Origin: an uncultured virus (IMG/VR IMGVR_UViG_3300025614_000002) | Taxonomy: Duplodnaviria > Heunggongvirae > Uroviricota > Caudoviricetes | Direction: 5' to 3' (one strand) | Length of the DNA: 63,178 nucleotides | Virus record (IMG/VR): IMGVR_UViG_3300025614_000002 | Shown here: positions 1,647 to 60,139 of the stretch, in pieces | Numbering within the stretch: the first letter of the stretch is position 1 | Layout: every line of letters starts with the position of its first letter | Notes under the pieces: model-generated | The model's input: the letters and a program-made list of their open reading frames with translations, nothing else | Databases searched by the model: none | What the model was told of the DNA's origin: nothing | Translations under genes and position numbers: made by a program

Positions 1647-2436
1647 TCTGCAGCTCTTCCGGGATGAGCAAGCTCACCCCCTGGTCCTACTCCGTGCCTG
1701 CCTCCGCCTGTTTGGGGCAGAGGTGCTGGAGTGGGAGCCCACGGTCGTGAAGAGGTCGATCGAAGACGCCACTGAGGCCACCGTATCTCGCGTGAACTTC
1801 GTGAAGATCCTGGCGGCCCTGACCGTCGCGAACCGCGACAACTTCTGGCTGGAGTGGGAGACCTTCCACTTCTTGTCCCAGGCGTTGAACAACAACCTCC
1901 CCTCGGCAGGTGCCATCCAAGATCAGAGCGTCGGACAGATGATGGTGGCGGTGGACATCGCTGCCAGCATCCGGAAAGAGCTGGGGACGCTCTCGGAGGT
2001 CCCGGAGTTCAGCGACGAGGTGCGGCGGTACATCGCGGCCCAGCTCTCGGAGGCGGGAATCTGGTTCGTCCCAGAGCCCCTCACCTTCGTCAACCCCCTC
2101 ATCTCTGGACTCACCCAGGTTTGCGGTGAGTGTGACAATGAGGAGGAGCCGCAGGTGGACGGCCTCTGCAGCTACTGCACGGATCGGTACGACGCGGACT
2201 CTCTGCTCAAGCTCGAACCGGACGAAGAGCTCAGCAAGAAGTACGACGGATCCAAGGTGCGGGTCATCGAGAAGTTCAAGACGCTCCCCGTCCAGAAGCG
2301 GCTCATGGACTACCTGACAAAGCCTGCTACGGTACTCCGCGAGACCCAGGCGGATATCTGTACCGCCAAGATCGTGACCGGATTGGAGTACATGATGCAC
2401 CGCCGGGCGCAGCTGAGCCGACAGGAGGCCGTATGA
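1633..2436 (+). CDS. Hypothetical phage protein with CxxC...CxxC
   Basis: ORF 1504..2436; likely start ATG 1633 overlapping the upstream gene end; CGEC/CSYC. Confidence 0.7.
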   Translation: MAATDLQLFRDEQAHPLVLLRACLRLFGAEVLEWEPTVVKRSIEDATEATVSRVNFVKILAALTVANRDNFWLEWETFHFLSQALNNNLPSAGAIQDQSVGQMMVAVDIAASIRKELGTLSEVPEFSDEVRRYIAAQLSEAGIWFVPEPLTFVNPLISGLTQVCGECDNEEEPQVDGLCSYCTDRYDADSLLKLEPDEELSKKYDGSKVRVIEKFKTLPVQKRLMDYLTKPATVLRETQADICTAKIVTGLEYMMHRRAQLSRQEAV

Positions 2437-3458
2437 CCCCGGAATCCCTGGCCGCCTTCGTAGACGAGATGCAGAAGCTCTCAGAAATGCCCGCACCGGC
2501 TGCCAAGGAGGAAGATCGCGGTGGGGTCGTCAGTCGCGCACGTAGCTCTCTGAAGCGGCACGCAGGAGTCGGAACCCTCGCCATGGGAGGCCTGACCGCG
2601 GCGCTGGCTGCGAAGAACCCGCAGGCAGCCGGGAAGTTCTTTCGGCACGCCAAAGAGCTGGTGACGAAGCCGGGTAAGAGTCTCGCGCGCGGGTGGAAGT
2701 CTGGAAGGACAGACATCACCTCTGGAGCTGGGGCATCGGACGCTGCGTCGAAGCGGGTCGGCATGTACAAGGACACGTTCCGCAGTGCCGGAGATGGGCG
2801 ACTCCTCCAGCATGACGTGCTCACTCAGAAGGACCCAGGGTTCTTGCGGCGGCAGAACATCCTCGGCGTCGGAGAGCGCAGCAAAGAGGGCCTAAAGCTG
2901 AACAAGGCGCTGGCACAGCGGGTCAAGGAGACTCAGGGCAGGTTGGACGCTGGGGAGCGGATTCCGGAGAGTCAGTTGCGCGCACTCTACGACGAGATCG
3001 GCCAGGCTGGTAGCGCCCAGAAGCTCAAGCCGGCGGCGGGCCTGACGACGTACATGCCCGGAGAGAGGTCTGCTAACGTGGGCCTCGGGACCGTCGGAGG
3101 AGTGGCAGGAGGCCTCGAGTCGCACGATCCCGAGACGGGGCGTAAGCGTGGGGTAGGAGAGCGCCTGGCCCGTGGTGCTGCTGGGGCAGGCACCGCCATT
3201 GGGCTGGGACACATGTTCATGGGTCGAGGCACTGGGATGGACGCCGGGAACTTCATCCCCAAGAGCCTCCGGGCTAAGCTGCCGAAGACGTTCCGCGGTA
3301 ACCAGATCCCCCTCACAGGGGATAGGTCGATGCTCTCCCAGAAGGGGCTGCTGCCGCTGGCCGCTGGCGGCGTACTCGCAGCAGGAGAGGGCGTAGCCGC
3401 AGATGCTGCAGGTGCGGGCGGGCAGTTGGTAGATCGGGCCTTCGGGCAGGGGGAGTAG
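2433..3458 (+). CDS. Putative virion cargo protein (AFVDEMQKLS leader, glycine-zipper helices)
   Basis: ATGA-coupled; acidic leader, then K/R-rich body with several G/A-rich hydrophobic segments. Confidence 0.65.
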   Translation: MTPESLAAFVDEMQKLSEMPAPAAKEEDRGGVVSRARSSLKRHAGVGTLAMGGLTAALAAKNPQAAGKFFRHAKELVTKPGKSLARGWKSGRTDITSGAGASDAASKRVGMYKDTFRSAGDGRLLQHDVLTQKDPGFLRRQNILGVGERSKEGLKLNKALAQRVKETQGRLDAGERIPESQLRALYDEIGQAGSAQKLKPAAGLTTYMPGERSANVGLGTVGGVAGGLESHDPETGRKRGVGERLARGAAGAGTAIGLGHMFMGRGTGMDAGNFIPKSLRAKLPKTFRGNQIPLTGDRSMLSQKGLLPLAAGGVLAAGEGVAADAAGAGGQLVDRAFGQGE

Positions 3459-5522
3459 ATGTCGGTCTCAGGCGAGCTCAGTCGGTTCAATCCGCGTCGC
3501 GCCAGTGTGGACGGGAGCCGTGGATTCGGTATCCAATACCCGTCCCCCTTCTTCGACATCGCGCAGCAGTTCCTCCCGACGAACCAGCACCAGCTGCACA
3601 AGTGGTGTCGGTACTACTTCCTCACGAATCCGGTCATCAACGCCGCCTGCTCCAAGATGGCCGAGTACCCGGTCACCCCTCTGGTGTTCGAGACAGAGGA
3701 CCCGGAGCTCCAGAAGCTCGGACGCAAGGTCGAGGGGCAGCTCAAGCTGCGCTCGTTCCAGGTCGAGGTGGGCCTGGACTACTTCGTGTACGGCAACGCC
3801 TTCGTCTCGGTGTTCCTGCCGTTCGAGAAGTACCTCATCTGCTCGAGCTGCAAGGCCCGGTACCGGGCGAAGACGAACCGCTTCCGCTACACCTGGCGCA
3901 ACTCCCGTTTCTACCTCAAGAAGTGCAAGTGTGGGCACGTCGGCTACGCCAAGCAGCACGACGTCTACATGCGGAGCTTCCGGCAGATCAAACTGGTCCG
4001 CTGGAACCCCGAGAACATCACGATCAAGCACAACGAGATCACAGGGGAGACGAAGTACTTCTTCAAGCTCCCCCGTGCGGTGCTCAATGACATCAAGCTG
4101 GGGGACAAGGACACCATCGAGACGCTGCCCATCGAGTTCCTCGAGGCGGCGCGGCGTCGGAAGTCTCTGCTCTTCTCGAAGGACAACCTGTACCACCTGA
4201 AGCGTCCGACCATCGCGCAGAAGGACCAGGGGTGGGGAACCCCCCTGATCTACCCGCTGCTGAAGGATGCGTACTACCTGCAGGTGATGAAGAAGGCGAA
4301 CGAGGCAGTCCTCCAGGAGAGCATCGTCCCCCTCCGCATTCTCTTCCCGGGCCAGAGCACGGGAGGTAACGAGGGGCCGTACGGCGCGTACAACCTGACG
4401 AACTGGAAGAAGCGTGTTGATGAAGAGATCAACATGTGGAAGCGGGACCACAACTACATCCCTGTCCTTCCGGTGAACGTCGGCTTCCAGCAGATCGGCG
4501 GCCAGGGGCGCTCCCTCCTGCTCTACCAGGAGATGCGACTCCTCGCGGAGCAGATGCTGGCCGGTGCCGGCATCCCCGTAGAGTTCATCTTCGGCGGCCT
4601 CCAGTGGAGTGGGTCGAGTACCTCTCTCCGTGCCCTGGAGAACATGTTCCTGGGCTTCAACATGCAGCGGCATGAGCTCGTGAATGAGTTCATCCTCGGG
4701 AAGATCTTCTCCTTCATGGACTGGCCGAAGGTCCCTGCGCGGTTCGACAAGTTCCGCATGGCCGACGATCTCCAGAGGAGCATGTTCTACCTGCAGCTCA
4801 ACCAGGCACAGAAGATCAGCAACCGCCGGCTCATGGAGGAGGTCGGAGAGAACTTCGACCTCGAGACCGAGCGCATGGAAGACGAGATCGCGACGCAGCT
4901 CCAGGCCAACCGCAAGATGCAGGTGGCTTCTGCCGACATCCAGGGCGAAGCCCAGCTGCGTGGATCCCGCTACCAGACCAAGGCCCAGGAGCTCCAGATG
5001 CGCTCCCAGGCCAAGGTACAGATGGAGATGCAGCAGGAGCAGATGCAGGCTCAGGCGGCCATGCAGGGCGGAGCTCCGGGGCAGCCTCCCCCACAGCAGC
5101 CCGCGCAGCCTCCACAGCAGCCTTCACAGCAGCCTCAGCAGGGCGGAGATCAGGCCCAGCAGACTGCAGGTCTCCCAGAAGGGGCCACGGCGTACGACGA
5201 GAACGCACAGAACCCCAACGCCACGGGCATGCCGGCAGCGATGGCGGGAATGCAGTCACAGGTACAGCCCGGTGGAGGAGGCGTAGACCTCCGGTACATC
5301 GCGCAGCGAGCCGCGGCATTCCTGCGCACCGTGAAGGCTGAGCAGGGTGAGGAGGCGATGTTCCAGTCTCTTGCGCAGATGCAGACCTCCAACCCCGCGC
5401 TCTACCAGCTGGTAGTCCAGCTAATGAATGAGACGGGGTCGAAGCAGGATCCGACAAACGCGATGTCGAATCCTGCTCCGAATGGAACTCCGCAGGCCAG
5501 TGCGGGACGCCAGGTCGGCTAA
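3459..5522 (+). CDS. Portal protein
   Basis: Portal-like motifs NPVINAAC..MAEYP, LDYFVYGNAFV, NLYHLKR, WGTPLI; Cys insertion; Q/P-rich C-terminal tail. Confidence 0.8.
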   Translation: MSVSGELSRFNPRRASVDGSRGFGIQYPSPFFDIAQQFLPTNQHQLHKWCRYYFLTNPVINAACSKMAEYPVTPLVFETEDPELQKLGRKVEGQLKLRSFQVEVGLDYFVYGNAFVSVFLPFEKYLICSSCKARYRAKTNRFRYTWRNSRFYLKKCKCGHVGYAKQHDVYMRSFRQIKLVRWNPENITIKHNEITGETKYFFKLPRAVLNDIKLGDKDTIETLPIEFLEAARRRKSLLFSKDNLYHLKRPTIAQKDQGWGTPLIYPLLKDAYYLQVMKKANEAVLQESIVPLRILFPGQSTGGNEGPYGAYNLTNWKKRVDEEINMWKRDHNYIPVLPVNVGFQQIGGQGRSLLLYQEMRLLAEQMLAGAGIPVEFIFGGLQWSGSSTSLRALENMFLGFNMQRHELVNEFILGKIFSFMDWPKVPARFDKFRMADDLQRSMFYLQLNQAQKISNRRLMEEVGENFDLETERMEDEIATQLQANRKMQVASADIQGEAQLRGSRYQTKAQELQMRSQAKVQMEMQQEQMQAQAAMQGGAPGQPPPQQPAQPPQQPSQQPQQGGDQAQQTAGLPEGATAYDENAQNPNATGMPAAMAGMQSQVQPGGGGVDLRYIAQRAAAFLRTVKAEQGEEAMFQSLAQMQTSNPALYQLVVQLMNETGSKQDPTNAMSNPAPNGTPQASAGRQVG

Positions 5523-6352: not shown

Positions 6353-9300
6353 GTGTCCAATCTGAACCCTGAAGCAGCCCACCGCTCCCTGGTCCAGAAG
6401 ACCAAAGAGGCGATCTCCTCTCACTTTCCGATTGAGGGCAGGAAGCACCGCCTGGAGCTCCTCTCTCTCGTCATTGAGGAAGGGCCGAAGTTCAGTTCGG
6501 CCAACTACGAGTCCCAGGCGGGCGCGCGACTGACGGGGAAGACCTGGGGACCGGACATCAAGGCGAAGTTCCGCCTGGTGGACATCGAGACCAAGAAGGT
6601 TCTGGACGAGAAGACCCGGACGATCGGCACTCTGCCCAAGATCACCACTCGGTACAGCTACATCGTAGCAGGCAGCGAGCGGCAGTTCGATGGGGTGTTT
6701 CGGCTGAACCCCGGTGCCTACCACGCAGAGGCCAGCAACGGCGACCTCCTCGCGAAGTGGAATGTCGCTGCTGGGTCAAAGATCGGGTCCTTCAAGATCT
6801 TCATCGAGCGGAAGGACCCGAAGAAGGTCGGGCGCATGCACCTGATCGTGAAGAGCGGGGATGCGTCCACCGTGAAGATCGCGATCTACCCGGTGCTCAA
6901 GGCCATGGGCATCAGCGATGAGCAGATGAAGTCCAAGTTCGGAGAGAAGATCTTCGAGGCCAACAGGGCTGCGGCAAAGCCCGGAACCCTGCAGCGGTTC
7001 CACAAGGCGATCGAGAACCGGAAGAAGTCTCAGGACTACAAGCCCCCGCCCCCAGCAGAGGCTGCCCAGTTCGCCAAGCAGGTGTTTGAGGGAGCCGAAG
7101 TCAGCGCCGACACGATGCAGTCCGCGCTGGGCAAGAAGTTCGAGAAGATCTCCGGGGAGGCCCTGCTCCTCTCCGCGGCGAAGCTGGTGGGGATCAGCAA
7201 GGGTCGCGTGAAGGAGGACGATCGACAGTCCCTCTCGAACAAGCGCCTCTTCGGGGCCGAGGATTTCATCCACGAGCATCTGACGAAGGGCGCCAACATC
7301 TACTCGTTGCAGCGGAAGATTCGCAACAACGTCGATCGCCGCGATCGCATCTCGGAGATCATCCCCGCACCTGGCGTGGGGTACGGCGCGGCCATCCTGT
7401 CGAAGTTCAAGGCGGGACAGCTCCCCACCCAGACGAACCCCCTGCAGTTCGTCTCGAACCACACGAAGACCACGATCCTCGGAGCGGAGTTCGGCGGCAT
7501 CAAGGGCGACAACGTCAACATGATGCAGGACAAGCTGATCAACCCGAGTCACCTCGGGCTCCTCGATCCGCTTCAGACCCCTGAGAACTCCGCCACTGGC
7601 GTAGTCCTCCATGTACCTCTCGGCGCCAAGAAGAAGGGCCACCGGCTGATGGCGCAGGTCATCAACGTGAAGACCCGTCGGGTCGAAGAGAAGAGCGCCG
7701 CCGAGCTCGAGAACGCGGTGGTCGCTTACCCAGACCAGGTCAAGGTCACGAAGAAGGCCGACGGCACGTACAGCCTGAAGCCTCGGTTCTCGAATGTCGT
7801 TGTCTACGACGACGAGCGCAACACCTCCAAGCGCCCATGGAATCAGGTCCAGTACGTGCTCCCCTCGGCTCGGAACCTCTTCGCGATCAGCGCCAACCTG
7901 GTGCCGTTCATCCAGAACGACAACGGCAACCGTGCGATGATGGCCGCCAAGCACCAGGAGCAGGCCGTGGGGCTCCAGAAGCGGGAGGCCCCACTGGTAC
8001 AGTCAGTCCAGAAGGGGAAGGCCTCCTACGAGCGCCTGGTGGGCGCCATGGCCGCTATCACAGCGGTCACGGATGGGACGGTCTCCTCTGTCTCCAAGAA
8101 GGCCATCGTGGTGAAGGGCCCGGACGGCAAGGCCTCGAAGTACCCCCTGTACGATCACTACCCGCTGAACGGCGCGAAGCACATGATGCACTCCACCCCT
8201 CTGGTAGAGGTGGGGGACAAGGTCAAGCGCGGCCAGGTCATCGCGGACTCCAACTTCACCCACAAGGGCACCCTGGCCCTGGGTACCAACCTGCGTGTGG
8301 CCTACATCCCGTACAAGGGCCTGAACTTCGAGGATGGCATCGTCATCTCGGAGAGTGCCGCGTCCAGCCTGGTGTCCAGTCACCTGCACAGCGTCGAAGT
8401 CGAGATGACGCCGAACGTGGTGGTGAACCGGAAGCTGTGGCGGCAGTACGCTGGGGCGATCAAGGCCACTCCTGAGGCGCTTCGGAAGCTGGATGAGAAT
8501 GGCGTGATCAAGAAGGGGACCCGGGTTCAGCCCGGAGATGTCCTGATCGCGAAGCTGCGCAAGCAGGACAACACCAAGGAGACCCAGGTAGTCAAGGCCG
8601 CGCTGAAGAAGGCGATCCGGGACTACGTCGATGCCGCTGAGATCTGGGATCACGAGTACGGCGGCACAGTCGTTCGCGTGGTGAACACCGGGAAGAAGCT
8701 GGCGGTCTACGTCCGGACTGAGCAGACGATGGAGATCGGGGACAAGCTCTCAGGTCGACATGGCAACAAGGGCATCGTCACCAAGATCCTCCCCGATGAC
8801 CAGATGCCGCGGGACAAGAGCGGGAAGCACGTCGAGGTTCTCCACAGCCCGGCGGGCATCCCCTCACGCATGAACGTCGGACAGGTCCTCGAGACCGCAG
8901 CGGGCAAGATCGCGAAGAAGACGGGCAAGCCCTTCCTGGTTGAGAACTTCGACCCGGACAAGGACTACAGCCAGTTCGTGAAGGACGAGCTCAAGAAGCA
9001 CAAGCTCTCGGACACCGAAGAGCTCTTCGATCCGGAGACGGGGGAGAGCCTCGGTCAGATCTTCACGGGGTTCCAGTACACGCTGAAGCTGGACCATCAG
9101 GCGGAGAAGAAGGTCACGGCTCGCGCTGGTGGATTCGGGTACAAGTACCGTCCCACTGGGGAGGCAGCTCAGGGCTCTGGCGTCGGGCAGGGAGGCCAGC
9201 GCATTGGTGGCCTGGATCTGTACTCCATGCTGGCTCACGGAGCTGTACACAACCTTCGGGAGATGCAGACCTACAAGTCTGACCGAGAGCAGGCCGAGGA

Positions 9301-12300
9301 TGTGTGGCTGCGGATCATGCGGGGAGAGCGCCCGCCGCCCCCGAAGGTCCCCCGCTCCATGGTCCACTTCCAGCACTACCTCCGTGCGATGGGGGTGAGT
9401 ACATCCGAGAAGGGTGGAAAGTACAGCCTCATGCCCATGACGGATGCCCAGGCCGTTGCCCAGAGCAGTGGTCAGCTCACCCTCCCAGAGAAGACGCTCG
9501 CGGCCAAGGGCTCGCTGACTCGAGAGGAGCGGGGCGGCCTCTTTGACCGCGGCAAGACCGGAGGGCTTGACGGCCGGAAGTGGAGTCACATGGACCTGGG
9601 CATGCGCGTGCCCAACCCGGTCTTCGAAGAGCCTGTCCGGCTGCTGCTCCGGATGAAGAAGCCCGAGTTCCGGAAGCTCCTGTCCGAGTCCGGTGCGCAG
9701 GGTCGCAAGTCCGGCTTCACGATCATCGAGGAGAAGCTCCGCGCGTTGAACGTGGACACTGAGCTCAAGAAGAGCGAGAAGTCCCTGACGGATGCGAAGA
9801 AGGGCAAGCTCAACGTGGAGTACAAGCGTGTTCGCTATCTCCGCGCCCTGAAGAAGCTGAAGCTGAAGCCGATCGACGCGTACACCAACCGTGTGATCCC
9901 GGTGCTTCCTCCGCAGCTCCGGAAGGTGAGCATCGGCTTTGACGGCACGCAGATCATCGACCCCGTCAACCAGATGTACGCCATCACCGGGTCTATGGTG
10001 AGGCAGCTCAAGAACGCGGAGAAGGAGCGTCTGCCGGTGGGGGACATCCAGAAGCTCCAGGCGGAGATCTACACGACCGTCAAGGCGCTGCGCACAACCG
10101 GGATGACGCTCGAGGGCAAGCAGCTCCCGAGTCTGATGGACAAGCTTTCGGGGGCGAGCAGCCAGCCGAAATATTCGTTCTTCCAGACGGGCGTACTCGG
10201 CAAGCGTCAGGATCTCTCTGGTCGCTCTGTGATCACACCAGATCCAGACCTCCCGCTGGATGAGGTCGGGGTCCCCCGCTCCATGGCCATGGAGATGTAC
10301 AAGCCGTTCGTCATCCGGGAGCTCTGGCGCCGCATGGGGCGCGCGCGTACTCCACGAGAGGCGCGGGAGATGATCAAGAAGAACCACCCCGCCGCCAACG
10401 AGGCGCTGGCCCGCGTGGTGAAGGACCGTCCCGCGATCATGAAGCGGGACCCCGCCCTTCACATGTTCTCGATGATGGCCTTCCGCCCGAAGATCGTAGA
10501 GGGCCGCTCCATCAAGATCCATCCCCTGGTCGTCGGAGGCTTCAACGCTGACTTCGATGGGGACACCATGGCCATGTACGTCCCGATCTCAGACAAGGCG
10601 GTGGAAGAGGCGAAGGGCATGCTCCCCTCGAAGAATCTCTTCTCGCCCACTTCTGGCAACCTGATGGTCGCCCCGAGCCAAGATGGCGTCCTGGGGATCT
10701 ACCAGGCGACCCGCTGGGGGAAGAAGAAGTCCGGATCCTTCACGCAGGAGGAGGCCCTCAAACTCATGAAGCAGGGCAAGCTGAAGTCCTACGATGTGAT
10801 CTCAGTCAAGGGGATGACGAAGCCCACCACCCCGGGCCGCCTGGCGCTGAACAAGACGCTCCCCGCGGAGTTCAAGGGAGATGCCGAGCTCCTGCATGAC
10901 CCCAGCTTCCGCATGGCCAAGGGGAAGATGAAGGGTCTCGCTACGCGGGTCGCTCGAGCGCACCCAGGTGAGTTCGCCTCGATGATCGATCAGTGGAAGA
11001 CGCTGGGGCACAATCTGGCCTACAAGAACGGGTCGAGCGTCAGCCTCAACGACTTCCATGACGGCTTCAAGCTCCGAGATGAGCGCCTCAAGAAGTACCA
11101 GGTGAAGGAGCGGGAGATCCGCAAGGGCTCCGGCAGCCAGAAGGAGAAGGACCAGAAGATCGTCAACCTGTACCGCAAGGCGCAGACAGAGCTCCGTGAG
11201 GTCGGCACCGCTCGGTACAACCGCACGGACAGCAACCGCATGTGGGACTGGGCGCAGAGCGGGGCGAAGGGCAACTGGAACCAGTTCGGCCAGCTCGTGA
11301 TGGGCCCGATCTTGGTCCAAGATCCGATGAACAAGGAGGTCCCGTTCCCGATCGTGAAGTCGTTCGGAGAAGGCCTCCCCATCTCCCAGTATTGGGCATC
11401 CCTGCATGGAGCGCGGAAGGGAACCATCGACCGCGCGAGCGCGACGGCGAAGCCTGGCGCGCTCACCAAGGAGCTTATCAACACGGTCATCGACCAGACG
11501 ATCAAGTCGGAAGACTGTGGCACCACGAAGGGCACCCTCCTCCCCGTGACGGATGCAGATGTTGGCGGCCGCTACCTGGCTGCTGATGTCCCCCTGAAGG
11601 GCGGCGATTCCCTCAAGAAGGGCACGCTCATCACTGAGCCCCTCCGCACGCGCCTCAAGAACTCGGGCCCCAAGAAGGTGCTGGTCCGGTCTCCCCTGGC
11701 CTGCAAGGAAGTGAAGGGGATCTGCGCCACCTGCTACGGGCTGAGCGAGCGCGGGAAGAACTACAAGGTCGGCACCAACGTCGGGGTCATCGCGGGGCAC
11801 GCCCTCGGAGAGCCCATCACCCAGATGCAGATGCGGACGTTCCACACAGGTGGTGTGGGCGGTGCGGGAGATGTCGGAGACTACTTCACCGCGGCGGAAG
11901 ACCTCCTCAAGGTCCCGAAGAAGCTGCGCGGTGAGGCGACGCTGGCGACCGTGTCGGGCCGCGTAGAGAAGATCATGAGCGACGCCCTGGGTGGAAAGAT
12001 CGTGACGATCACTGGGAAGCAGCACACGGTCCCGCACACCAACCAGCTCCTCCCCAAGATTCGGGTAGGCGCGGAAGTGAAGAAGGCGGAGGCCCTCTCC
12101 ACAGGCAGGAAGAACCCGAACCACATCCTCGAGATCACAAAGAGCATGGGTGCGGTTCGGAACCACCTGACGGAGAACCTGAACAGCCTCTACGTGGAGA
12201 CCACAGGGAACGAGCGGAGGCGCAACATCGAGACGGTGATCCGGGCGATGACCGATCTCACCAAGGTGAACAACCCCGGTGACGCCCCCAACATCCTGCG

Positions 12301-12679
12301 CGGGCAGATGCTCCCTCTGAGTGAGGTCGAGAACCTGAACAAAGACCTGCGCCGGGCAGGCAGGAAGGAGATCACCCACAGCCCCACGCTCAAGCCCCTC
12401 AACCAGGCTCCGCTGGCAGGGTCAGAGGACTGGATGGCGCGGCTCAACTTCCAGCGGCTGAAGGAGACGTACGTGGAAGGAGGGGCCCAGAACTGGGTCT
12501 CTGACATCCACGGCCACCCCATCCCCGGAGCTGCCCACGGTGCTTCCTTCGGGCTCACTCCGCCGTCCCCCGCTACAATGCCCAAGTCGGCCCCCAAGCC
12601 ACTTCCTGTCTCGCGGCCTGCGCCCCAAAAGAAGGCCCCGGCCTCGCCACCCTCCAGGTTCTCATTCTTCGGGAAATGA
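6353..12679 (+). CDS. rpoBC: DNA-directed RNA polymerase, fused beta-beta' single chain
   Basis: beta motifs QTNPL, TPE, GLNFEDGI, GDKLSGRHGNKG, PSRMNVGQ, GQRIG; beta' motifs GKRQDLSGRSVI, NADFDGD (10544-10564), GARKG bridge helix, CKEVKGICATCYG, GEPITQMQMRTFHTGG. Confidence 0.97.
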   Translation: MSNLNPEAAHRSLVQKTKEAISSHFPIEGRKHRLELLSLVIEEGPKFSSANYESQAGARLTGKTWGPDIKAKFRLVDIETKKVLDEKTRTIGTLPKITTRYSYIVAGSERQFDGVFRLNPGAYHAEASNGDLLAKWNVAAGSKIGSFKIFIERKDPKKVGRMHLIVKSGDASTVKIAIYPVLKAMGISDEQMKSKFGEKIFEANRAAAKPGTLQRFHKAIENRKKSQDYKPPPPAEAAQFAKQVFEGAEVSADTMQSALGKKFEKISGEALLLSAAKLVGISKGRVKEDDRQSLSNKRLFGAEDFIHEHLTKGANIYSLQRKIRNNVDRRDRISEIIPAPGVGYGAAILSKFKAGQLPTQTNPLQFVSNHTKTTILGAEFGGIKGDNVNMMQDKLINPSHLGLLDPLQTPENSATGVVLHVPLGAKKKGHRLMAQVINVKTRRVEEKSAAELENAVVAYPDQVKVTKKADGTYSLKPRFSNVVVYDDERNTSKRPWNQVQYVLPSARNLFAISANLVPFIQNDNGNRAMMAAKHQEQAVGLQKREAPLVQSVQKGKASYERLVGAMAAITAVTDGTVSSVSKKAIVVKGPDGKASKYPLYDHYPLNGAKHMMHSTPLVEVGDKVKRGQVIADSNFTHKGTLALGTNLRVAYIPYKGLNFEDGIVISESAASSLVSSHLHSVEVEMTPNVVVNRKLWRQYAGAIKATPEALRKLDENGVIKKGTRVQPGDVLIAKLRKQDNTKETQVVKAALKKAIRDYVDAAEIWDHEYGGTVVRVVNTGKKLAVYVRTEQTMEIGDKLSGRHGNKGIVTKILPDDQMPRDKSGKHVEVLHSPAGIPSRMNVGQVLETAAGKIAKKTGKPFLVENFDPDKDYSQFVKDELKKHKLSDTEELFDPETGESLGQIFTGFQYTLKLDHQAEKKVTARAGGFGYKYRPTGEAAQGSGVGQGGQRIGGLDLYSMLAHGAVHNLREMQTYKSDREQAEDVWLRIMRGERPPPPKVPRSMVHFQHYLRAMGVSTSEKGGKYSLMPMTDAQAVAQSSGQLTLPEKTLAAKGSLTREERGGLFDRGKTGGLDGRKWSHMDLGMRVPNPVFEEPVRLLLRMKKPEFRKLLSESGAQGRKSGFTIIEEKLRALNVDTELKKSEKSLTDAKKGKLNVEYKRVRYLRALKKLKLKPIDAYTNRVIPVLPPQLRKVSIGFDGTQIIDPVNQMYAITGSMVRQLKNAEKERLPVGDIQKLQAEIYTTVKALRTTGMTLEGKQLPSLMDKLSGASSQPKYSFFQTGVLGKRQDLSGRSVITPDPDLPLDEVGVPRSMAMEMYKPFVIRELWRRMGRARTPREAREMIKKNHPAANEALARVVKDRPAIMKRDPALHMFSMMAFRPKIVEGRSIKIHPLVVGGFNADFDGDTMAMYVPISDKAVEEAKGMLPSKNLFSPTSGNLMVAPSQDGVLGIYQATRWGKKKSGSFTQEEALKLMKQGKLKSYDVISVKGMTKPTTPGRLALNKTLPAEFKGDAELLHDPSFRMAKGKMKGLATRVARAHPGEFASMIDQWKTLGHNLAYKNGSSVSLNDFHDGFKLRDERLKKYQVKEREIRKGSGSQKEKDQKIVNLYRKAQTELREVGTARYNRTDSNRMWDWAQSGAKGNWNQFGQLVMGPILVQDPMNKEVPFPIVKSFGEGLPISQYWASLHGARKGTIDRASATAKPGALTKELINTVIDQTIKSEDCGTTKGTLLPVTDADVGGRYLAADVPLKGGDSLKKGTLITEPLRTRLKNSGPKKVLVRSPLACKEVKGICATCYGLSERGKNYKVGTNVGVIAGHALGEPITQMQMRTFHTGGVGGAGDVGDYFTAAEDLLKVPKKLRGEATLATVSGRVEKIMSDALGGKIVTITGKQHTVPHTNQLLPKIRVGAEVKKAEALSTGRKNPNHILEITKSMGAVRNHLTENLNSLYVETTGNERRRNIETVIRAMTDLTKVNNPGDAPNILRGQMLPLSEVENLNKDLRRAGRKEITHSPTLKPLNQAPLAGSEDWMARLNFQRLKETYVEGGAQNWVSDIHGHPIPGAAHGASFGLTPPSPATMPKSAPKPLPVSRPAPQKKAPASPPSRFSFFGK

Positions 12680-13134
12680 CCATGAACAAGATCGCCGCCT
12701 ACGAAGCCGCTCTCGCACGCCTCGACGCAGAGAAGACCGCCGAGGCGATCATCGACGCATACGGCACTTCTGAGGGCTACATGCCGGGCCCGTACCTTCT
12801 CGCCTTCGACCAGATGGAGAAGGAGGCGGGCATCAAGGCCCTGCAGGAGTTCGGGAAGGGGTTGTTCCGCTCTGGCATGAAGGGAGCGAAGACTGTCGGA
12901 ACTCGGGTGGGGGGCACCCGAGAGGGGGGTAAGTTCGTCCGTGGCGGCTGGAAGATGAACAAGGGCATGGGCGCAGGAGATCAGCTCAAGTGGCTCGGGA
13001 GCCGCGCCCAGATGCACGTTGGTCGCGCCCTCCAGACCGGCGGCGGCCAGGCAGCCCTCGGTGCCGCGGGCGCTGCTGGAGTGGGTGCCGCCGGCTACGG
13101 AGGCTACCGCGTCCTCGGCGGTGGCCAGAAGTAG
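12676..13134 (+). CDS. Putative virion cargo protein (MNKIAAYE leader, C-terminal glycine zipper)
   Basis: ATGA overlap with RNAP stop; EKTA and EKEAG sites; basic payload. Confidence 0.7.
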   Translation: MTMNKIAAYEAALARLDAEKTAEAIIDAYGTSEGYMPGPYLLAFDQMEKEAGIKALQEFGKGLFRSGMKGAKTVGTRVGGTREGGKFVRGGWKMNKGMGAGDQLKWLGSRAQMHVGRALQTGGGQAALGAAGAAGVGAAGYGGYRVLGGGQK

Positions 13135-14342: not shown

Positions 14343-15542
14343 ATGACTGCCCTCTTCCTTCCCGAGGTCGACCCGCATTCCTTCTTCGAGAAGGCGGCGT
14401 CCATCGCCAAGATGCCGGACGACGAGACGAAGTGGCCTGCGCATGTGCTGTCGAACCTGCACCAGCAGCTCCCGTTCCTCAGCCAGTTCGAAGTCAACAT
14501 TGACATCCAGCGCATGGAGCCGGAGGCCGGATTCGCATTCGGGCACGCCATGCTGCTGCCGAAGAGTGATCCCGCTGCGGCGACCGAGTCGAAGAATCCT
14601 GAGAACATGCTCCGGATTCCGATCATCATCTCGGACCGACAGCTGCAGCCCTTCCACGTATTCGAGGTCGCGGGGAACGCGTTCCCCCTGACCGCGGAGC
14701 GTGTGCAGTCTGCGCTCACCAGCCCGGCCATCTTCGACGGTCCGGCCAAGCGTCCGTCTGGGCAGAAGTCTCTGATCGACCAGCTGCACCCGCCCTACCA
14801 GCAGCGTCAGGGCTTTGGCCTCCACAAGTCTGCGGGGGCGCCGAACTACGAGAACATGAGTGCCGACCAGCTCCAGCAGATGGCGGAGCTCAAGCGGACG
14901 AAGAAGCTCGACAAATACCAGCGCGGGCTCTCCGGGAAGGAGAGGGTCGAAGGGGCCGTTCGTCAGTCCACCATCCCTATCGGGGTTGGTGCCGGTCTCG
15001 GGGCGCTCAGGGCGATGGGAGCATCGAAGGCCAAATGGGACAAGAAGGGCATCCAGCAGCGGCTTGGAGCCGGCCTCGGTGGCGCTCTTGTTGGTACTGG
15101 AACGGGTGCGGCCATCACCGCCGCCAATCAGGGAGTCCAGAACTGGCGGCGGAAGAAGCGAGATGCGGCGCGTAGGGAGATGGGCCTTCTCAAGAAGGAA
15201 GGTTCCGTCACCCTCAGTTTCAGCTCCTCGAACATGGTCCCGGCTTCTGCAGTAGTGGGGAGCCAGCGGCTTCCTCTGAAGAGCGGGGCCACGGTGGCTT
15301 CCCTCGCCTTCTACCAGGTGCCCGGCACGAAGTTCGTGATGGCCGTACCTCGGAGCATGGCGAAGAAGCTCGAGAAGGTCTCGGACCAGCAGAAGCTCCG
15401 CAGCATGCTCAGCGGTGGGATGCGCGAGGAGATCCGGGCTGCACGCAGCGGACTCCCTTCCCCCGGCCTGTTCATGGTCTTCGAGAAGGCCAAGAAGGGC
15501 TACCGCTACCTCAAGCCCAGTCCCATCGCCGGCATGCGCTGA
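14343..15542 (+). CDS. Putative virion protein: globular N-domain plus glycine-zipper module
   Basis: AGGAG SD; EKAAS, KSAG; two G-rich hydrophobic helices. Confidence 0.65.
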   Translation: MTALFLPEVDPHSFFEKAASIAKMPDDETKWPAHVLSNLHQQLPFLSQFEVNIDIQRMEPEAGFAFGHAMLLPKSDPAAATESKNPENMLRIPIIISDRQLQPFHVFEVAGNAFPLTAERVQSALTSPAIFDGPAKRPSGQKSLIDQLHPPYQQRQGFGLHKSAGAPNYENMSADQLQQMAELKRTKKLDKYQRGLSGKERVEGAVRQSTIPIGVGAGLGALRAMGASKAKWDKKGIQQRLGAGLGGALVGTGTGAAITAANQGVQNWRRKKRDAARREMGLLKKEGSVTLSFSSSNMVPASAVVGSQRLPLKSGATVASLAFYQVPGTKFVMAVPRSMAKKLEKVSDQQKLRSMLSGGMREEIRAARSGLPSPGLFMVFEKAKKGYRYLKPSPIAGMR

Positions 15543-15946
15543 TGCTCCCGTTCTACCCCAAGCTGGCTGCGGCATCCGACGCCCCGGGGTACACCCCGAT
15601 CTCGTCGAGGGATGAGAAGTGCGAGGACTGCCGCTTCTACCGGGCCATCGCTTCCGGGGGCGGGTACTGCGAACAGTTCTCCTTCGGGGCAACTCCAGAG
15701 GGTGTCTGCGATGACTACTCCCGGGTGGAGCGAGACCAGGTCAAGACAAGTTCGGCCATCGATCCGGCGCTCAGTGAATTGAAGCTGCGGAAGCAGTATG
15801 CCAGCCAGGCGGCCAGAGATTTGACTCGGGGAAAGGTCTCGAAAGACACTGCACTTGCGGCGATCCGTGCGGCCGAAACATCTCGGACTGCCAAGTTCCT
15901 CAAGCTGGTCGATACGATCGATCAGGAATACCCCAAGAAATCCTGA
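15542..15946 (+). CDS. Small protein with HiPIP-like 4-Cys domain
   Basis: Y-x9-CEDCRFY-x9-C-x12-CDDY; flanked by KLAA and KTSS. Confidence 0.55.
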   Translation: MLPFYPKLAAASDAPGYTPISSRDEKCEDCRFYRAIASGGGYCEQFSFGATPEGVCDDYSRVERDQVKTSSAIDPALSELKLRKQYASQAARDLTRGKVSKDTALAAIRAAETSRTAKFLKLVDTIDQEYPKKS

Positions 15947-15959: not shown

Positions 15960-17471
15960 GTGACCACGCATTCTGGAGGGTCTCTCTGTCAGGCCATCTC
16001 AGGTACGCTCAACGAGAGCGACTTCGGCGCGTTCAACCAGGAGTTCGCAGACCCCAAGGTTCGCCGGCTCATCGAGAAGAACGCCTCGGTGATGGCCTGT
16101 CTCGCCCGGCTCACTGAGCGCCCCATCACCAGCTCGGAGAAGCTGGCCTCTGCTGCTCGTTCCGCCTTCCGTCCGGGTACCGATGTCGTACAGGTGCGGC
16201 CAGACGGCTACGGCTACGTCATCAAGGTCTCTGCTGCCCCACAGGGCATGGCCCCGCAGGAGACCAAGGTGACGGCTCAGCAGGCCCAGCAGGCGCTCCC
16301 TCCGGAGATGCTGCAGGCCGCTGACCAGCAGGGAGCGGCTACCGTCACCAACGTCCAGGCTGCGCCCGACCCTCTGCAGGAGCAGGCGGTTCCGGTGAGT
16401 CAGTTCGGCATCTACAAGGTCACTGACGCCTCCACCGGGAAGCAGGTGGTGGGTTTTGTGCTCCCCACGCTGTTCGACCCGGTTGCGGGTCAGCCGACTC
16501 CGATGAAGCTCTTCACCAACGGGAGTCAGTATTCGGTGCAGCCGGAGATCGTGGGATCTCTCGTGGGGGTGAGCCACAACCTGCCGCTGCCCCAGAAGCC
16601 TGAAGTCCGAGGCTTCGGCGTCTTCGTGAAGGTCAACGAGAAGGCGATCGTCGCCACCGTGCCCTACACGATCCTCACCAAGGTCACGGTGGAGGGTCGT
16701 GGGTACTTCGCAGCGCAGGACATGAACCGACAGGACATCCGGATCATCCCCTCGGAGGGCCTGGCGTCTCCGGTCGCGTCATCTCCTACCGAGATCGCAA
16801 TCCCTGCCGACTACAAGTTCCTCCCTCTGGACAACCCGGTGCAGCTCACCGCGGGGCCCGAGCTCATGAAGGCGGCGCAGGCCAACGCGTACCCCACGAT
16901 GGTGGAGATCCGCGCCTGGCAGGGCGGCTGTCGGCTTGACGGTCCGGTTTTCGACAAGCTCGGCTCCGGGGAGCATGACTGGGTGGACGGGGCCTTCTGG
17001 TTGGCTGCGGCGGGCATGCCGCAGAATCTCACCACTGCGATCTTCGAGAAGGCCGCAGCATCGGGAGAGGCGGTTCGCCTCTTCGGGCTCCAGCCGCTCT
17101 CGAGTCGGGATGAGTACCAGGTCGAGGCGGCGAAGGAAGCCGCGGTGGACATGCTCGACGTGCAGATCCCCAAGCGGGTCAACCTGATCAAGGAGATCAG
17201 CGCCATCTCCTTTGACAAGCGGGCCTCCGCCATGGTGGACACCGCGTCCGTGGATGCTGTCCTCGCGCTCAACTTCCTGAACCCCGAGAACGTGGACACC
17301 TTCGTGGAGTTCCTGCCCCAGCTCGAGGATGCGTCCACGAAGCTGGCGGGAGTAGTCCTCGCGGCGCAGGTCGGCCTGCAGTCCATCCCCAAGACCGCAG
17401 CGGTCCGTGCGCTGTTCGCACTTGAGGACGTCATCACCGGCCTCAAGAGCCTCAAGAAATACACCGTGTAG
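15960..17471 (+). CDS. Putative head/core structural protein
   Basis: AGGAG SD, GTG start; KNAS, KLAS, KAAA, KEAA, KRAS, KLAG, KTAA. Confidence 0.7.
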   Translation: MTTHSGGSLCQAISGTLNESDFGAFNQEFADPKVRRLIEKNASVMACLARLTERPITSSEKLASAARSAFRPGTDVVQVRPDGYGYVIKVSAAPQGMAPQETKVTAQQAQQALPPEMLQAADQQGAATVTNVQAAPDPLQEQAVPVSQFGIYKVTDASTGKQVVGFVLPTLFDPVAGQPTPMKLFTNGSQYSVQPEIVGSLVGVSHNLPLPQKPEVRGFGVFVKVNEKAIVATVPYTILTKVTVEGRGYFAAQDMNRQDIRIIPSEGLASPVASSPTEIAIPADYKFLPLDNPVQLTAGPELMKAAQANAYPTMVEIRAWQGGCRLDGPVFDKLGSGEHDWVDGAFWLAAAGMPQNLTTAIFEKAAASGEAVRLFGLQPLSSRDEYQVEAAKEAAVDMLDVQIPKRVNLIKEISAISFDKRASAMVDTASVDAVLALNFLNPENVDTFVEFLPQLEDASTKLAGVVLAAQVGLQSIPKTAAVRALFALEDVITGLKSLKKYTV

Positions 17472-17480: not shown

Positions 17481-18182
17481 GTGGCCCCGCAGCTCATCGA
17501 GATCGGAAACATGACGCCTGCCGAGGTCCGGCAGGCGTACGACTCCTTCCGGAAGATGGAGATGGAGAAGAAGCAGCAGCTCGCTGAAACTCCTCCGGGC
17601 ACCCTGCGCCACCGGTGGCGCTCTCGGCAGTACAAGAACCACCGCAGGGACGCGGAGTCCTTCTTGGCGAAACAGGGAGCCGCCCCCATGGACAAGCTCG
17701 CACGCATTTTCGGCGCCCAAGAGCCGGATGTATCAGAAGCTGCAATCCCGTACGGCGTTCGGAAGCGTCAGTACTCTCGGTACGCCAAGGCCAAGGCCAA
17801 GGAGAAGGCTACCCCCATGGGTAAGGCCTCCCTGGTGGGCGGCCTTGTTGGGGGCGGCATCGGGGCGCTCGGCGCGGCCCTGAGCGGACCGTCACGGCGT
17901 GCGGCACCCAACGCTGTGATCGGGGGAGTCCTCGGTGGCCTCGGTGGGGCCCTGGTTGGCGCCGGGCTGTCTGCCCAAGATGAGAGCCACATCCGGGCGG
18001 CCAAGAGCATCGTCCGCAACAACAACTACGACCGGGCCACCCTGGGGGCCGTCCGCCGGCAGCTCGATACCAAGCAGCACCAGCGGGAGTTGAACGAGTT
18101 CTACAAGGAGCAGCGGGCGGAAGATCGCCACCATGAGCTCCGCAATCGCCTGGATCGCATCGATCGGCATAGCCGCTACTGA
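17481..18182 (+). CDS. Putative virion cargo protein with double glycine zipper
   Basis: Internal MDKLAR motif; GGLVGGGIGALGA and GGVLGGLGGALVGAG helices. Confidence 0.65.
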   Translation: MAPQLIEIGNMTPAEVRQAYDSFRKMEMEKKQQLAETPPGTLRHRWRSRQYKNHRRDAESFLAKQGAAPMDKLARIFGAQEPDVSEAAIPYGVRKRQYSRYAKAKAKEKATPMGKASLVGGLVGGGIGALGAALSGPSRRAAPNAVIGGVLGGLGGALVGAGLSAQDESHIRAAKSIVRNNNYDRATLGAVRRQLDTKQHQRELNEFYKEQRAEDRHHELRNRLDRIDRHSRY

Positions 18183-18190: not shown

Positions 18191-18634
18191 GTGGACAAAC
18201 TCGCAGCATACGAATCTCTTTTGGAAGGCCACCCACTCTGGGAGGATTTCGAAAAGTCTGCAGCCTGGGCCCCAGTTGGGGCCCTAACCGGCGTGGTGGG
18301 CGGAGCTGCGCTTGGCTACGCCAAGAGCCGAGAGCTGCCCCGGAAGTCTCGTGTTCGCGGAACTATCGCAGGCGGGGCGCTCGGCGGTGCCGTAGGTATG
18401 ACCGCGGGGGGAATGGCAGATGTGACCAGCTCTTTCCGCCGGGCCAATGCGGCGCTGGAACGCGCGCACGCAGGGGGGCTGTTGCAGGATGCCCTGGACA
18501 ATCGAAATCACTTGGCTGCCCTGCGAGAGTTGGACCTCTCGAGTGCCCGCGTCGATAGAATTCGAGGCAAAATGAATTCCTTGGAGAAGGAGATCAAATC
18601 CCTGGATGACCTCGATCGGTTTATGACGGAGTAG
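18191..18634 (+). CDS. Putative virion cargo protein (MDKLAAYE..HPLW leader)
   Basis: Leader ending EKSAA; two glycine zippers; coiled-coil end. Confidence 0.7.
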   Translation: MDKLAAYESLLEGHPLWEDFEKSAAWAPVGALTGVVGGAALGYAKSRELPRKSRVRGTIAGGALGGAVGMTAGGMADVTSSFRRANAALERAHAGGLLQDALDNRNHLAALRELDLSSARVDRIRGKMNSLEKEIKSLDDLDRFMTE

Positions 18635-39066: not shown

Positions 39067-39386
39067 GTACGGACAAGAAGCCGACGCTGCTCGGGGCGGT
39101 CCTCCCCCCTGTCCTGGCCACTGGAGCTGGTGCCCTGGTCGGCGGGGTTGCTGGTGGCGTGGCCACTCGGGCGATGCTTCGCTCCCCTGGGGTCCGTCAG
39201 CGGCTTTCTCGCATGACCCCGGAGCAGCGTAGGAAGCTGGTCCAGACGGTTGAGATGCTGGGTGGACCTGTGATCGGCACTGCTGGTGCCGTGGGCTCTC
39301 TGGCTACACGCGACTACCTCGAGGCCAAGCTTCAGAAGCGAAAGCAGATGGAAGCTGAGCTCTCCACCCGTTCGGGTACTCAGTGA
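39063..39386 (+). CDS. Small glycine-zipper membrane-like protein
   Basis: Two hydrophobic G-rich helices. Confidence 0.6.
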   Translation: MSTDKKPTLLGAVLPPVLATGAGALVGGVAGGVATRAMLRSPGVRQRLSRMTPEQRRKLVQTVEMLGGPVIGTAGAVGSLATRDYLEAKLQKRKQMEAELSTRSGTQ

Positions 39387-45268: not shown

Positions 45269-45934
45269 GTGAACAAGCTCGCAGAGTATGAGGCCCTTCT
45301 CGAAGATCATCCCCTCTGGGATGATGAGCGGCAGCTCATCAAGACCGCGTCCGTCGATGAAGTCTACCTGACGGGAGAGCTCATCAAGGCTGCCTCCCTG
45401 GGGTCGGAAGACGATCTCATCTGGGTACTGGATGTGGCAGACGAGATGGGAATCGACAAAGAGGCGGGCCTCTTTGCTCGTGCCCTGAAGGGTCTCGCCT
45501 CGGGGGTAGGCCGTGCCGGCAAGGCAGTGGGCTCCAAGAGCTTGACTGGGGCAGCGTCAAACCTCAACCTCCGGGCGGCTCGCAGTGCCCAGAAGTCCAT
45601 GCACCGCATGTCCGGCGCTGCGCCCACGCTTCGGAATCTCCAGAAGTACCAGAAGGCCAAGGAAGTGGGCCGCGCAGCCGTCACCCAGGGCCGGGCGCAG
45701 CAGTCTACGGCACAGGGAATGTCGGGCCTTCGTGCGCGTGCGGCGGAGCGATTCGGTGCGGCGAAGAACCGTATGACGCCGTCGGCGCCCCCGGTGTCGG
45801 CCCCCGCCGGTCCGGGCTCCAGTCAGGCCATGCAGGGTGCCAGTGCTGCTCCGGCTCGTCGGACGCAGTCTGCTCTGGCTCGTATGCGGGATCGCGTCCA
45901 TGCTCGCCCCCGCGGCATGGCCTACGCGTACTGA
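45269..45934 (+). CDS. Putative cargo protein (MNKLAEYE..HPLW leader)
   Basis: KTAS, KAAS, KEAG, then basic A/R-rich payload. Confidence 0.7.
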   Translation: MNKLAEYEALLEDHPLWDDERQLIKTASVDEVYLTGELIKAASLGSEDDLIWVLDVADEMGIDKEAGLFARALKGLASGVGRAGKAVGSKSLTGAASNLNLRAARSAQKSMHRMSGAAPTLRNLQKYQKAKEVGRAAVTQGRAQQSTAQGMSGLRARAAERFGAAKNRMTPSAPPVSAPAGPGSSQAMQGASAAPARRTQSALARMRDRVHARPRGMAYAY

Positions 45935-45942: not shown

Positions 45943-46197
45943 ATGGACTCCGATGTCCTGTACTTCTTCGAGGACGAGCTCGAGAAGCTCGCGTCTGATC
46001 CCCGCCGCAAGCGGCATCAGTACTACATGCGCAACAAGAACCGCATCCAGTCCCAGCAGCGCATGTACCGGAAGAAGAACGCGCACAAGATCAAGCGCCG
46101 GCAGAAGATCTACCGGCGTCAGGTCGGCGCAGGGATGCGGCGTCAGCGGAAGCGGATCTCCACCGGAAGCTCCTACACCTACGGGGGCTACCGGTGA
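45943..46197 (+). CDS. Protamine-like basic protein with FFEDELEKLAS leader
   Basis: Acidic 18-aa leader then R/K/Y-rich body. Confidence 0.7.
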   Translation: MDSDVLYFFEDELEKLASDPRRKRHQYYMRNKNRIQSQQRMYRKKNAHKIKRRQKIYRRQVGAGMRRQRKRISTGSSYTYGGYR

Positions 46198-54276: not shown

Positions 54277-54284
54277 GTTGCGCG

Positions 54285-54907: not shown

Positions 54908-54908
54908 G

Positions 54909-59716: not shown

Positions 59717-59740
59717 CTGTCTGGACAGTGGTGCTGCTGT

Positions 59741-60139
59741 CTACGCGATTACTCCCGCGAGTGCCTCAGCGGCCGGGTGGACCTTGCCCGCCAACCAGCC
59801 GACGACTCCGGGGTCTTGGCGTTTCGCCAGCGTGGCGACCTCTGCTGCGCGCTCTCCGAGCATGGGAGCGAGGCCTCTTCGTGCTGCTCCGCCGATGCCG
59901 GTGTTCATGATGAACGCGGGATCTCCCCGCTGCGCAGCCAGGTGCATGTTGTGCGCGATCTCTCCTGCTGCGGGTGCTGCCTTGATGTAGCCCTTGCCCG
60001 CTCGAGTCTTGGCGAACCGAGTCAGCAGCGGGCGTCCAGGGAGCAGCCCCTTGCGTGCCTGGTTCAGTCGCACGGGGTTGATCAGCGCCCTCTTCTCGAT
60101 TTCATGACTGAAGGCGCGCAGGACAAGCGGATCGATCAT
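59741..60139 (-). CDS. Putative cargo protein (AFSHEIEKRA leader), outside the structural cluster
   Basis: Leader motif then basic A/G-rich body. Confidence 0.6.
   Translation of the reverse strand: MIDPLVLRAFSHEIEKRALINPVRLNQARKGLLPGRPLLTRFAKTRAGKGYIKAAPAAGEIAHNMHLAAQRGDPAFIMNTGIGGAARRGLAPMLGERAAEVATLAKRQDPGVVGWLAGKVHPAAEALAGVIA

Follow-up and report, generated by a model that had tools for sequence, protein, structure and literature searches.

A putative Lys-x-Ala prohead-protease site and candidate capsid-targeting leaders in the virion module of an uncultured large myophage

In phage T4, short N-terminal propeptides, the capsid targeting sequences (CTS), are found on the small basic internal proteins IPI–III and on the ADP-ribosyltransferase (ART)-type enzyme Alt, and the prohead protease gp21 processes these together with the core proteins gp22, gp67 and gp68 and the capsid protein (PMC9026906, PMC9958956, PMC7411985), the published cleavage rule being L/I-X-E (PMC9026906). 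Here we describe what may be a comparable system in a 63,178-nucleotide stretch of DNA (IMG/VR IMGVR_UViG_3300025614_000002; hereafter the window) from an uncultured virus of the Caudoviricetes, which represents the virion module of a large myophage and has 63% GC. Its elements are the motif Lys-x-Ala (K-x-A) followed by Ser, Ala or Gly, two families of N-terminal leaders (A and B) which end in that motif, and a protease gene, 28860 (genes are named by the lower of their two coordinates). The best reading of these is that K-x-A is a prohead-protease site and that the leaders are capsid-targeting propeptides, cut off in the prohead, on fast-changing cargo; judged from sequence and predicted fold together, the scheme as a whole appears reasonably probable to us.

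The system works like the CTS and gp21 of T4, like the propeptides of the giant phages and like the packaging signal of phage P1 DarB, but it departs from the T4 site rule. As in T4, a protease of gp21 fold is predicted in the head module, the core proteins are dense in sites, the capsid protein would be trimmed, and short N-terminal propeptides stand on small basic proteins and on a possible ART-type enzyme; a propeptide shared by unrelated internal proteins is seen here at the sequence level only. Unlike in T4, the site is K-x-A before Ser or Ala instead of L/I-x-E, there are at least two unrelated leader families of 17–25 residues, one of which matches an internal scaffold helix, and the payloads turn over quickly.

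The giant phages SPN3US (gp245, A-x-E, with Ser at P1') and phiKZ (gp175, S/A-x-E) process many head proteins, as proposed here, and likewise have redundant sites in acidic propeptides, a preference for Ser at P1' and a virion RNA polymerase (RNAP) (PMC10052503, PMC5694885). They differ in that P1 is Ala, P3 is Lys and the leaders are short and shared here, most SPN3US propeptides exceeding 100 residues, and in that we find a single fused beta-beta' chain of cellular type in a genome class of 167–196 kb. The general rule for herpesvirus proteases, which have a Ser-His-His triad, is cleavage between Ala and Ser in V/L-x-A-S. Their assemblin (pUL26N) resembles the present enzyme in fold and in the proposed Ala-Ser bond, the M site of pseudorabies virus being presumably VQA-S (PMC4498786). 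It is unlike it in that P3 here is Lys and not aliphatic, that there are many substrates and cargo leaders, and that the protease is not fused to a scaffold. A further parallel is DarB of phage P1, which contains SNF2. Its 30-residue N-terminus suffices to package a reporter (PMC9024508); here, by contrast, a single consensus leader, with a putative protease site at its end, is common to many proteins that are otherwise unrelated. SNF2 and pyrophosphatase (InPase), domains of injected polyvalent proteins (PMC5512222), are found behind leader B.

Among cultured phages, Salmonella phage Arash and Vibrio D69/D148/D181 come closest: their RNAP, portal, protease, capsid, sheath and tube genes are homologous and share the gene order, and K-x-A is likewise in excess. 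They are unlike the window in that identity is only 22–35%, in that neither leader is present, and in that the RNAP of Arash and D69 is split in two, the beta chains starting M-P-K-x-A-S (the site is at residue 3). The accessible sections of the Arash paper do not discuss processing (PMC10585845), and a literature search, which mostly missed subscription journals, found no publication that describes a K-x-A rule or deals with processing in phages of the Arash type. Moraphages were considered as relatives and rejected as another lineage, without RNAP (PMC12619734).

When all patterns of the form X.YZ (a dot standing for any residue) were ranked blind over the 66 window proteins, K.AS came first, with 34 copies against 6.8 expected, expected counts being taken from each protein's own composition. 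It is also first in seven of the ten related virus records (one of which overlaps the window) and among the top four in the other three, and it leads again in the D69 stretch and among 22 genes of the Arash head region. Across orthologues, K.A[SAG] is concentrated in the head-core proteins, capsid protein and protease included, where 371 sites were observed against 65.8 expected in 85 proteins. There is no enrichment in tail-neck proteins (13/18.5, observed/expected, 80 proteins), and portals (7/7.2) and the terminase (3/4.5) are unremarkable; 12 RNAP orthologues have 19/34.3, a depletion which is suggestive but, as the orthologues are not independent, is given little weight. An earlier reading of the window from its letters and open reading frames, the sequence-only reading, had named equal frequency of the motif in non-structural proteins as a finding that would speak against it; the count there is 15/15.9 (34 proteins). 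What that reading missed is that K-x-A is densest in conserved core proteins and sits in the leaders of the protease and the capsid protein too.

Controls in which spacing or residue was altered stay near expectation (KA 74/65.9, K...A 72/65.4, R.A 82/75.8). Ser follows K.A at 36% of the 589 core sites, an enrichment of 5.2-fold, and the share of orthologue cells that retain Lys is 0.66 at the sites versus 0.44 for Lys elsewhere. In the core proteins of the window K.A is the top residue pair (65/24.9). The same blind pair count applied to six T4 head proteins returned I.E and L.E, which agrees with the published gp21 rule and so serves as a positive control; T4 core proteins have 0–1 K.A[SAG] site each, no excess.

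It is very probable that these sites are cut by the product of gene 28860, which is found in the head module with the capsid gene:

28860..30797, + strand: prohead protease, predicted T4 gp21/herpes assemblin fold over residues 40–290 (phrog_18299, E 1e-4)
34858..35991, + strand: HK97-like major capsid protein; its leader of 25 residues ends in K23-T-A25 (34924–34932)

According to a structural model of residues 40–290 (predicted local distance difference test, pLDDT, 91.7) the 28860 product has the fold of T4 gp21 and herpes assemblin. In a structural search of 48,161 chains the top match was T4 gp21 (5jbl; Z 9.2, root-mean-square deviation 2.9, 133 aligned), and the next three were herpes proteases, those of varicella-zoster virus (VZV; 1vzv, Z 8.1), human cytomegalovirus (HCMV; 8j3s, Z 6.7) and KSHV (the Kaposi's sarcoma-associated herpesvirus; 1fl1, Z 4.6). 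Down to Arash and D69, 11 sequences have H137, H138 and S194 without variation, and K37-x-A39, directly before the protease domain, is equally constant in them. In the capsid protein K23 and A25 are kept in at least 90% of 22 aligned sequences, Arash and D69 having K27-E-A-G; K-x-A thus flanks the protease domain and the capsid protein as far as these two phages, and neither leader has a conserved L/I-x-E. The model of the capsid protein is poor (pLDDT 54.5), sufficient for HK97-like matches and not for locating the cut. The coverage of the Arash capsid protein, with 41 of 307 residues uncovered, was rejected as evidence, for it fits removal of a leader but also other combinations.

The sites of this protease clan (T4, phiKZ, SPN3US, herpes) have P3 and P1 fixed and a small P1', and by this analogy the cut would probably be placed after Ala, with Lys at P3, Ala at P1 and a small residue at P1'. 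As to the enzyme itself, a conserved Cys cluster, possibly a zinc site, follows the catalytic Ser, and several homologues are about 1000 residues in length and contain intein/LAGLIDADG domains.

The core proteins and their sites are as follows:

570..1646, + strand: conserved core protein, 6 sites; the start may be near 612
14343..15542, + strand: conserved N-terminal domain, K-S-A-G at residue 162, then a basic Gly-zipper cassette
15960..17471, + strand: conserved core protein, 7 sites
27362..28306, + strand: conserved core protein, 10 K-x-A[SAG] sites against 0.69 expected
28306..28860, + strand: conserved head-module protein whose acidic, leader-B-like leader ends in K-E-A-G; Arash gp221 is a distant counterpart
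30775..31878, + strand: scaffold-like core protein, conserved acidic repeats, 6 sites, a variable basic/Gly cassette and a conserved C-terminal motif
31177..31245, + strand: internal helix of 30775, residues 135–157, the second half of which matches leader B
32824..33558, + strand: core protein, 5 sites
33558..33830, + strand: small core protein, 2 sites
33845..34210, + strand: probable scaffold, 3 sites, conserved C-terminal motif

Three of these, 30775, 14343 and 28306, are hybrids in which conserved core parts are joined to variable basic cassettes. Between 30775 and its counterpart in one related record (G008) identity is 0.78 before the last site and 0.25 after it. In the ESM Atlas 30775 found only unnamed clusters below 0.8.

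Leader A has the consensus M[DN]K[IL]A.Y..LL..HPLW..K-x-A and occurs in the window on the following genes, which are given with a neighbour of similar payload:

12676..13134, + strand: half leader A, K-E-A-G at residue 49, basic G/A-rich payload; directly 3' of the RNAP gene
17481..18182, + strand: Gly-zipper hairpin protein without leader A or B; its payload is by eye (not aligned) like those of the leader-A-headed L143 and L151 proteins
18191..18634, + strand: Gly-zipper payload behind leader A; without a homologue in nine other virus records
22788..23117, + strand: leader A and hydrophobic Gly-zipper payload (maximum KD19 1.77); no homologue in nine other records
45269..45934, + strand: leader A, then an acidic spacer in which K-x-A occurs three times, then a basic payload

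The sequence-only reading had reported this N-terminus on four proteins, and all eight strings that it quoted for its two motifs are present at the genes named, the one in 12676 beginning at codon 3. The leader is complete on 18191, 22788 and 45269; in 12676 there is only half of it, without HPLW. Not one match was obtained in 200 shuffled window proteomes. A scan of viral contigs with a back-translated pattern returned 27 stretches and 25 distinct translations (there are three cut-off duplicates); in 23 of the 25 the leader is at a start codon, and in 22 the distance from HPLW to K-x-A is no more than 14 residues. Comparison was possible for the 24 payloads of sufficient length, which make up 20 unrelated families, 16 of the 24 being basic, 14 G/A-rich, nine with GxxxGxxxG and two with a transmembrane-like segment. 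Leader A is absent from records G004–G007 and G009–G011, from Arash and from the D69 stretch. It behaves as a portable tag of one subclade.

Leader B has the form F..E[LIV].K.A, and the genes of the window proposed to carry it or a variant are:

2433..3458, + strand: leader B ending K-L-S, not K-x-A, with a basic Gly-rich payload; directly 5' of the portal gene
32507..32827, + strand: K-E-A-A at residue 23, preceded by F-M-D-E-L; the payload is basic, and 14 of 37 loci have homologues
37643..38191, + strand: 44-residue acidic leader ending K-E-A-A, Gly-zipper payload
45943..46197, + strand: canonical leader B and a very basic helix, net +23 in 67 residues
46194..47081, + strand: basic protein with three K-x-A-A/S sites at residues 54–89, without leader A or B
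59741..60139, - strand: loose leader B and basic payload; no homologue in nine other records

The motif F.DE[LM].K.[AS], under which this leader was originally noticed, was matched strictly by 2433 and 45943 among 11 genes tested and not by the others, 59741 having the looser form only. Of the looser variants that had been claimed, 46194 is without the F/Y..E match, and in 32507 and 37643 F.DE is split from K-x-A by extra residues. Our own looser form, [FY]..E[LIMVTF].K.[AS], was widened after examples had been seen; it was counted in 13 proteomes, where it occurs 42 times versus 5.3 in shuffled sequences, and 29 times versus 1.1 in the first 40 residues, one of the 29 being probably due to chance. 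The leader-B alignment has no conserved stretch of 7–10 columns. Of the 29 leader-B genes, 28 share the strand of the capsid gene, compared with 1039 of 1841 others, the sole exception, 59741, adjoining a minus-strand block that looks tail-related.

The combination of F/Y at P9 and E at P6 is present at 30 of 475 N-terminal non-core sites versus 7 of 589 core sites, from which it follows that leader B carries more than a cut site. Internal matches to it fall mainly in the conserved helix 135–157 of 30775 and its orthologues. A profile made of seven such scaffold helices alone (K-x-A columns included; the G010 scaffold was left out on account of a one-residue insertion) picks 24 of 2165 N-termini versus 0.6 shuffled, and 21 of these are leader B. 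In 19 of 21 orthologue comparisons the leaders are better conserved than the payloads. On these similarities, leader B may work by imitating the conserved helix of 30775, a mimicry of the scaffold which we find quite possible without going so far as to call it probable.

In the mechanism that we propose, core proteins and leader-bearing proteins would assemble inside the prohead, the leaders, N-terminal and ending in K-x-A, attaching otherwise unrelated proteins to its core. Leader B may mimic the conserved helix of scaffold-like 30775, and leader A would be a younger tag, limited to the closest relatives. The 28860 protease would trim itself and the capsid protein, shred about ten acidic core proteins at their K-x-A sites and remove the leaders, with the release of payloads that are mostly small basic G/A-rich polypeptides, besides some enzymes (SNF2 ATPase, pyrophosphatase, sigma factor, ART-like domain). 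The payloads would stay with the DNA and probably be ejected. That the leaders target cargo to the capsid we hold to be likely. The arrangement of address, cleavage and payload put forward by the sequence-only reading is thus one which we too infer, from a gp21-like protease, the confinement of the motif to the head module, the conservation of the leaders and the 20 payload families.

Payloads behind leader B are basic in 24 of 29 cases versus 308 of 1819 other proteins, G/A-rich in 18 (versus 221) and provided with GxxxGxxxG in nine (versus 228). The described flip from acidic to basic is clear (net charge before/after) in 12676 (-5/+13), 45269 (-13/+24), 45943 (-5/+23) and 30775 (-34/+11), and also in 2433 and 37643; it is weak or absent in 28306 (-5/0), 22788 (-1/+2), 59741 (0/+10) and 46194 (+9/+18). 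About 15 packed cargo genes had been suggested; several (30775, 28306) code for conserved proteins of the core rather than for free cargo, and in relatives some payloads of leader B are enzymes. A scan of 52 proteins showed this leader on two SNF2 ATPases, three polyvalent-type pyrophosphatases and two zinc-ribbon proteins; most of the proteins have no family.

A sigma factor (G002 54128-54940, L130), homologous to the Arash virion protein gp10, has an N-terminal extension ending in K-x-A; the extension is present in eight of nine uncultured records with a match and is wanting in Arash. The motif HGT..I..GL follows a K-x-A site or leader in L129:6751-7689 (G002), in L121:8417-12238 and in Arash gp96. 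It is typical of ART folds. The Atlas look-alikes of the G002 protein with this motif are ART folds, all below the naming bar, and provide a lead only, to a possible analogue of T4 Alt.

Three more genes of the window are to be mentioned beside the payloads:

15542..15946, + strand: small Cys-containing protein, K-L-A-A at residue 7, variable C-terminal part
31878..32510, + strand: DnaJ domain fused to a Gly zipper; K-x-A sites lie close to the C-terminus, and there is no leader at the N-terminus; one other match in 37 loci
39063..39386, + strand: basic Gly-zipper protein, no K-x-A site, no leader

At the C-terminus of 31878 a leader-B-like helix follows K-T-A-A.

For phage Arash virion peptides have been tabulated. 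The RNAP beta chain is the most detected protein of Table 2, and the SNF2 homologue gp217 and the sigma homologue gp10 have 38 and 24 unique peptides, respectively (PMC10585845). All six basic G/A-rich Arash proteins of more than 100 residues have at least five unique virion peptides (four smaller ones have fewer) compared with 58 of 229 other Arash proteins, in a count which leaves out genes from gp240 on, because there the numbering of the table and that of GenBank seem to be shifted.

Several observations weigh against the proposed system or parts of it. K.AS is only 103rd in the whole Arash proteome, the control K..A[SAG] is mildly up (101/65.6), and in the core proteins of the window the pair of T4 type, L.E, comes second in enrichment (37/21.4). 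Foldseek also ranks T4 gp21 and the herpes proteases first, with weak E-values of about 0.06. Orthologue counts are not independent, ancestry being shared. The leader of 2433 ends in K-L-S, leader B is found in none of G010, Arash and the D69 stretch among the 13 proteomes, and, with the K-x-A columns among those of the scaffold profile, the site itself contributes to the signal of that profile. Both 39063 and 31878 have a payload-like make-up without a leader. Because Arash and D69 are without leaders A and B, the Arash data support the site and the class of cargo, not these leaders. The Arash table is loose, with 116 proteins, replication enzymes among them, and 100% coverage for two-peptide matches and for scaffold-like gp223 (PMC10585845); for this reason it is no demonstration of cleavage and no proof of an internal location, though it speaks for an association of the class with virions.

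Of the alternatives, the one that survives best holds that the Gly-zipper payloads are membrane-active and build, with the virion RNAP, a DNA entry channel or an early-infection vesicle. We consider this rather unlikely in general, and it may hold for a subset of payloads alongside capsid targeting. GxxxGxxxG is indeed frequent behind both leaders (9/29 for B, 9/24 for A), KD19 is at least 1.75 in 17481, 22788 and 39063, RNAP and sigma are prominent in Arash virions (PMC10585845), and early-infection vesicles exist in Chimalliviridae (PMC13282480). Transmembrane-like segments, however, are not enriched (3/29 leader-B payloads versus 148/1819 others; 2/24 for leader A), so that membrane activity as a general property, claimed by the sequence-only reading, is not supported. 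The RNAP of the window has no leader, and for a DNA entry channel or a compartment shared with it we found no direct evidence; the idea is unsupported inasmuch as the payloads are not unusually hydrophobic and some are enzymes (SNF2, pyrophosphatase). Zipper genes also turn over among close relatives (18191, 22788 and 59741 have no match in nine records, 31878 one other in 37 loci), unlike what would be expected of an essential channel; by their distribution, such genes would fit better with a DNA-neutralising filler or with host-conflict effectors. An extended version may be sketched, in which any gene gaining the scaffold assembly helix (leader B) or leader A would co-polymerise into the core and be freed by the Lys-x-Ala protease, and the freed set (sigma, SNF2 ATPase, ART-like enzyme, basic/Gly-zipper peptides) together with the fused RNAP would build a membrane-bounded early-infection compartment, independent of that of Chimalliviridae. 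This extended version as a whole we regard as a long shot.

A second alternative accepts K-x-A as a protease site and has the leaders as remnants of mobile propeptides or as charge-masking inhibitory peptides, the basic proteins entering the head by binding to the acidic core or the DNA; a masking leader would keep its basic protein soluble and harmless until cut. It is in keeping with this that leaders are acidic and payloads basic, that there are payload-like proteins without a leader (39063, 31878, Arash gp95 and gp96), and that the 45943 payload persists in G010 behind a different N-terminus. We nevertheless judge it unlikely, for specific hydrophobic residues (F/L in leader B; Y, L and HPLW in leader A) are kept however unrelated the payloads, among which are large folded enzymes with no need of a charge mask, and several leaders are nearly uncharged (22788 -1, 59741 0).

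The protease might also cut elsewhere, after Lys, as the HK97 protease reportedly does, or at L-x-E, K-x-A-S being then a helix-packing or binding motif of the core. The L.E excess in core proteins noted above would agree with this, as would the closest structure, T4 gp21, which cuts after Glu. It is improbable all the same, given that the leaders of the capsid protein and the protease keep K-x-A without a conserved L/I-x-E, that only the exact spacing together with Lys is enriched, and that the T4, phiKZ, SPN3US and herpes sites all have P3 and P1 fixed and a small residue at P1'. That everything is a compositional artefact of helical K/A/E-rich proteins, which the core proteins are and which the slight rise of K..A[SAG] might recall, is scarcely credible and already largely refuted by the class counts, with their protein-by-protein expectations, by T4 core proteins having no K.A[SAG] excess, and by the retention of Lys at the sites.

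If capsid targeting through K-x-A leaders is correct, sequence alone would reveal what a whole group of large phages with an RNAP carry as head cargo, and a gp21-fold protease would cut after Ala as the herpes enzymes do, with Lys at P3. The match of leader B to a scaffold helix would suggest a way for a targeting peptide to take hold of the core. The protease rule can be examined in a cultured phage, Arash.

Around the genes discussed, the window contains:

3459-5522: portal gene, directly 3' of 2433
6353..12679, + strand: fused beta-beta' RNA polymerase, no leader; K-x-A 1 against 4 expected
24062: terminase
40235: sheath
44561: tube
minus-strand block with AAA, vWA and gyrase B genes

The overlapping record, G002, covers the first 36 kb of the window, and complete relatives measure 167–196 kb. 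No host match was obtained in 185,579 prokaryote genomes. Gene starts in the relatives come from in-house gene calling and some are wrong, for example that of the fused G003 partner of 2433. Chimalliviridae have two split multi-subunit RNAPs and chimallin; the RNAP of the window is one fused beta-beta' chain with Pfam matches of cellular type (PF00562, PF00623, PF04998), recognisable by standard profiles, as in mReC phages (PMC7481178). The capsid protein 34858 has no Pfam match at E 0.001, and so no PF07068 such as mReC phages are described to have (PMC7481178); a search for PF03864 in five records was empty and uninformative.

The nonapeptide PLPVSRPAP is identical in the C-terminal tail of RNAP (12599) and in 46194 (46611), the DNA differing synonymously; this sharing was not seen in relatives. 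No late promoter common to the dispersed leader genes was found in their upstream DNA. A pair of vWA and MoxR-like AAA genes (window 47380-50397, - strand) is kept in six relatives. Finally, a candidate phage promoter, G[TGC]CATAA[GC], has 97 of its 165 copies in 11 sequences in intergenic DNA, which makes up only 7.8%; in the window it stands on the minus strand at 574, 6331, 24053, 26659 and 50437, and four copies lie 31–43 bases 5' of minus-strand non-structural genes.

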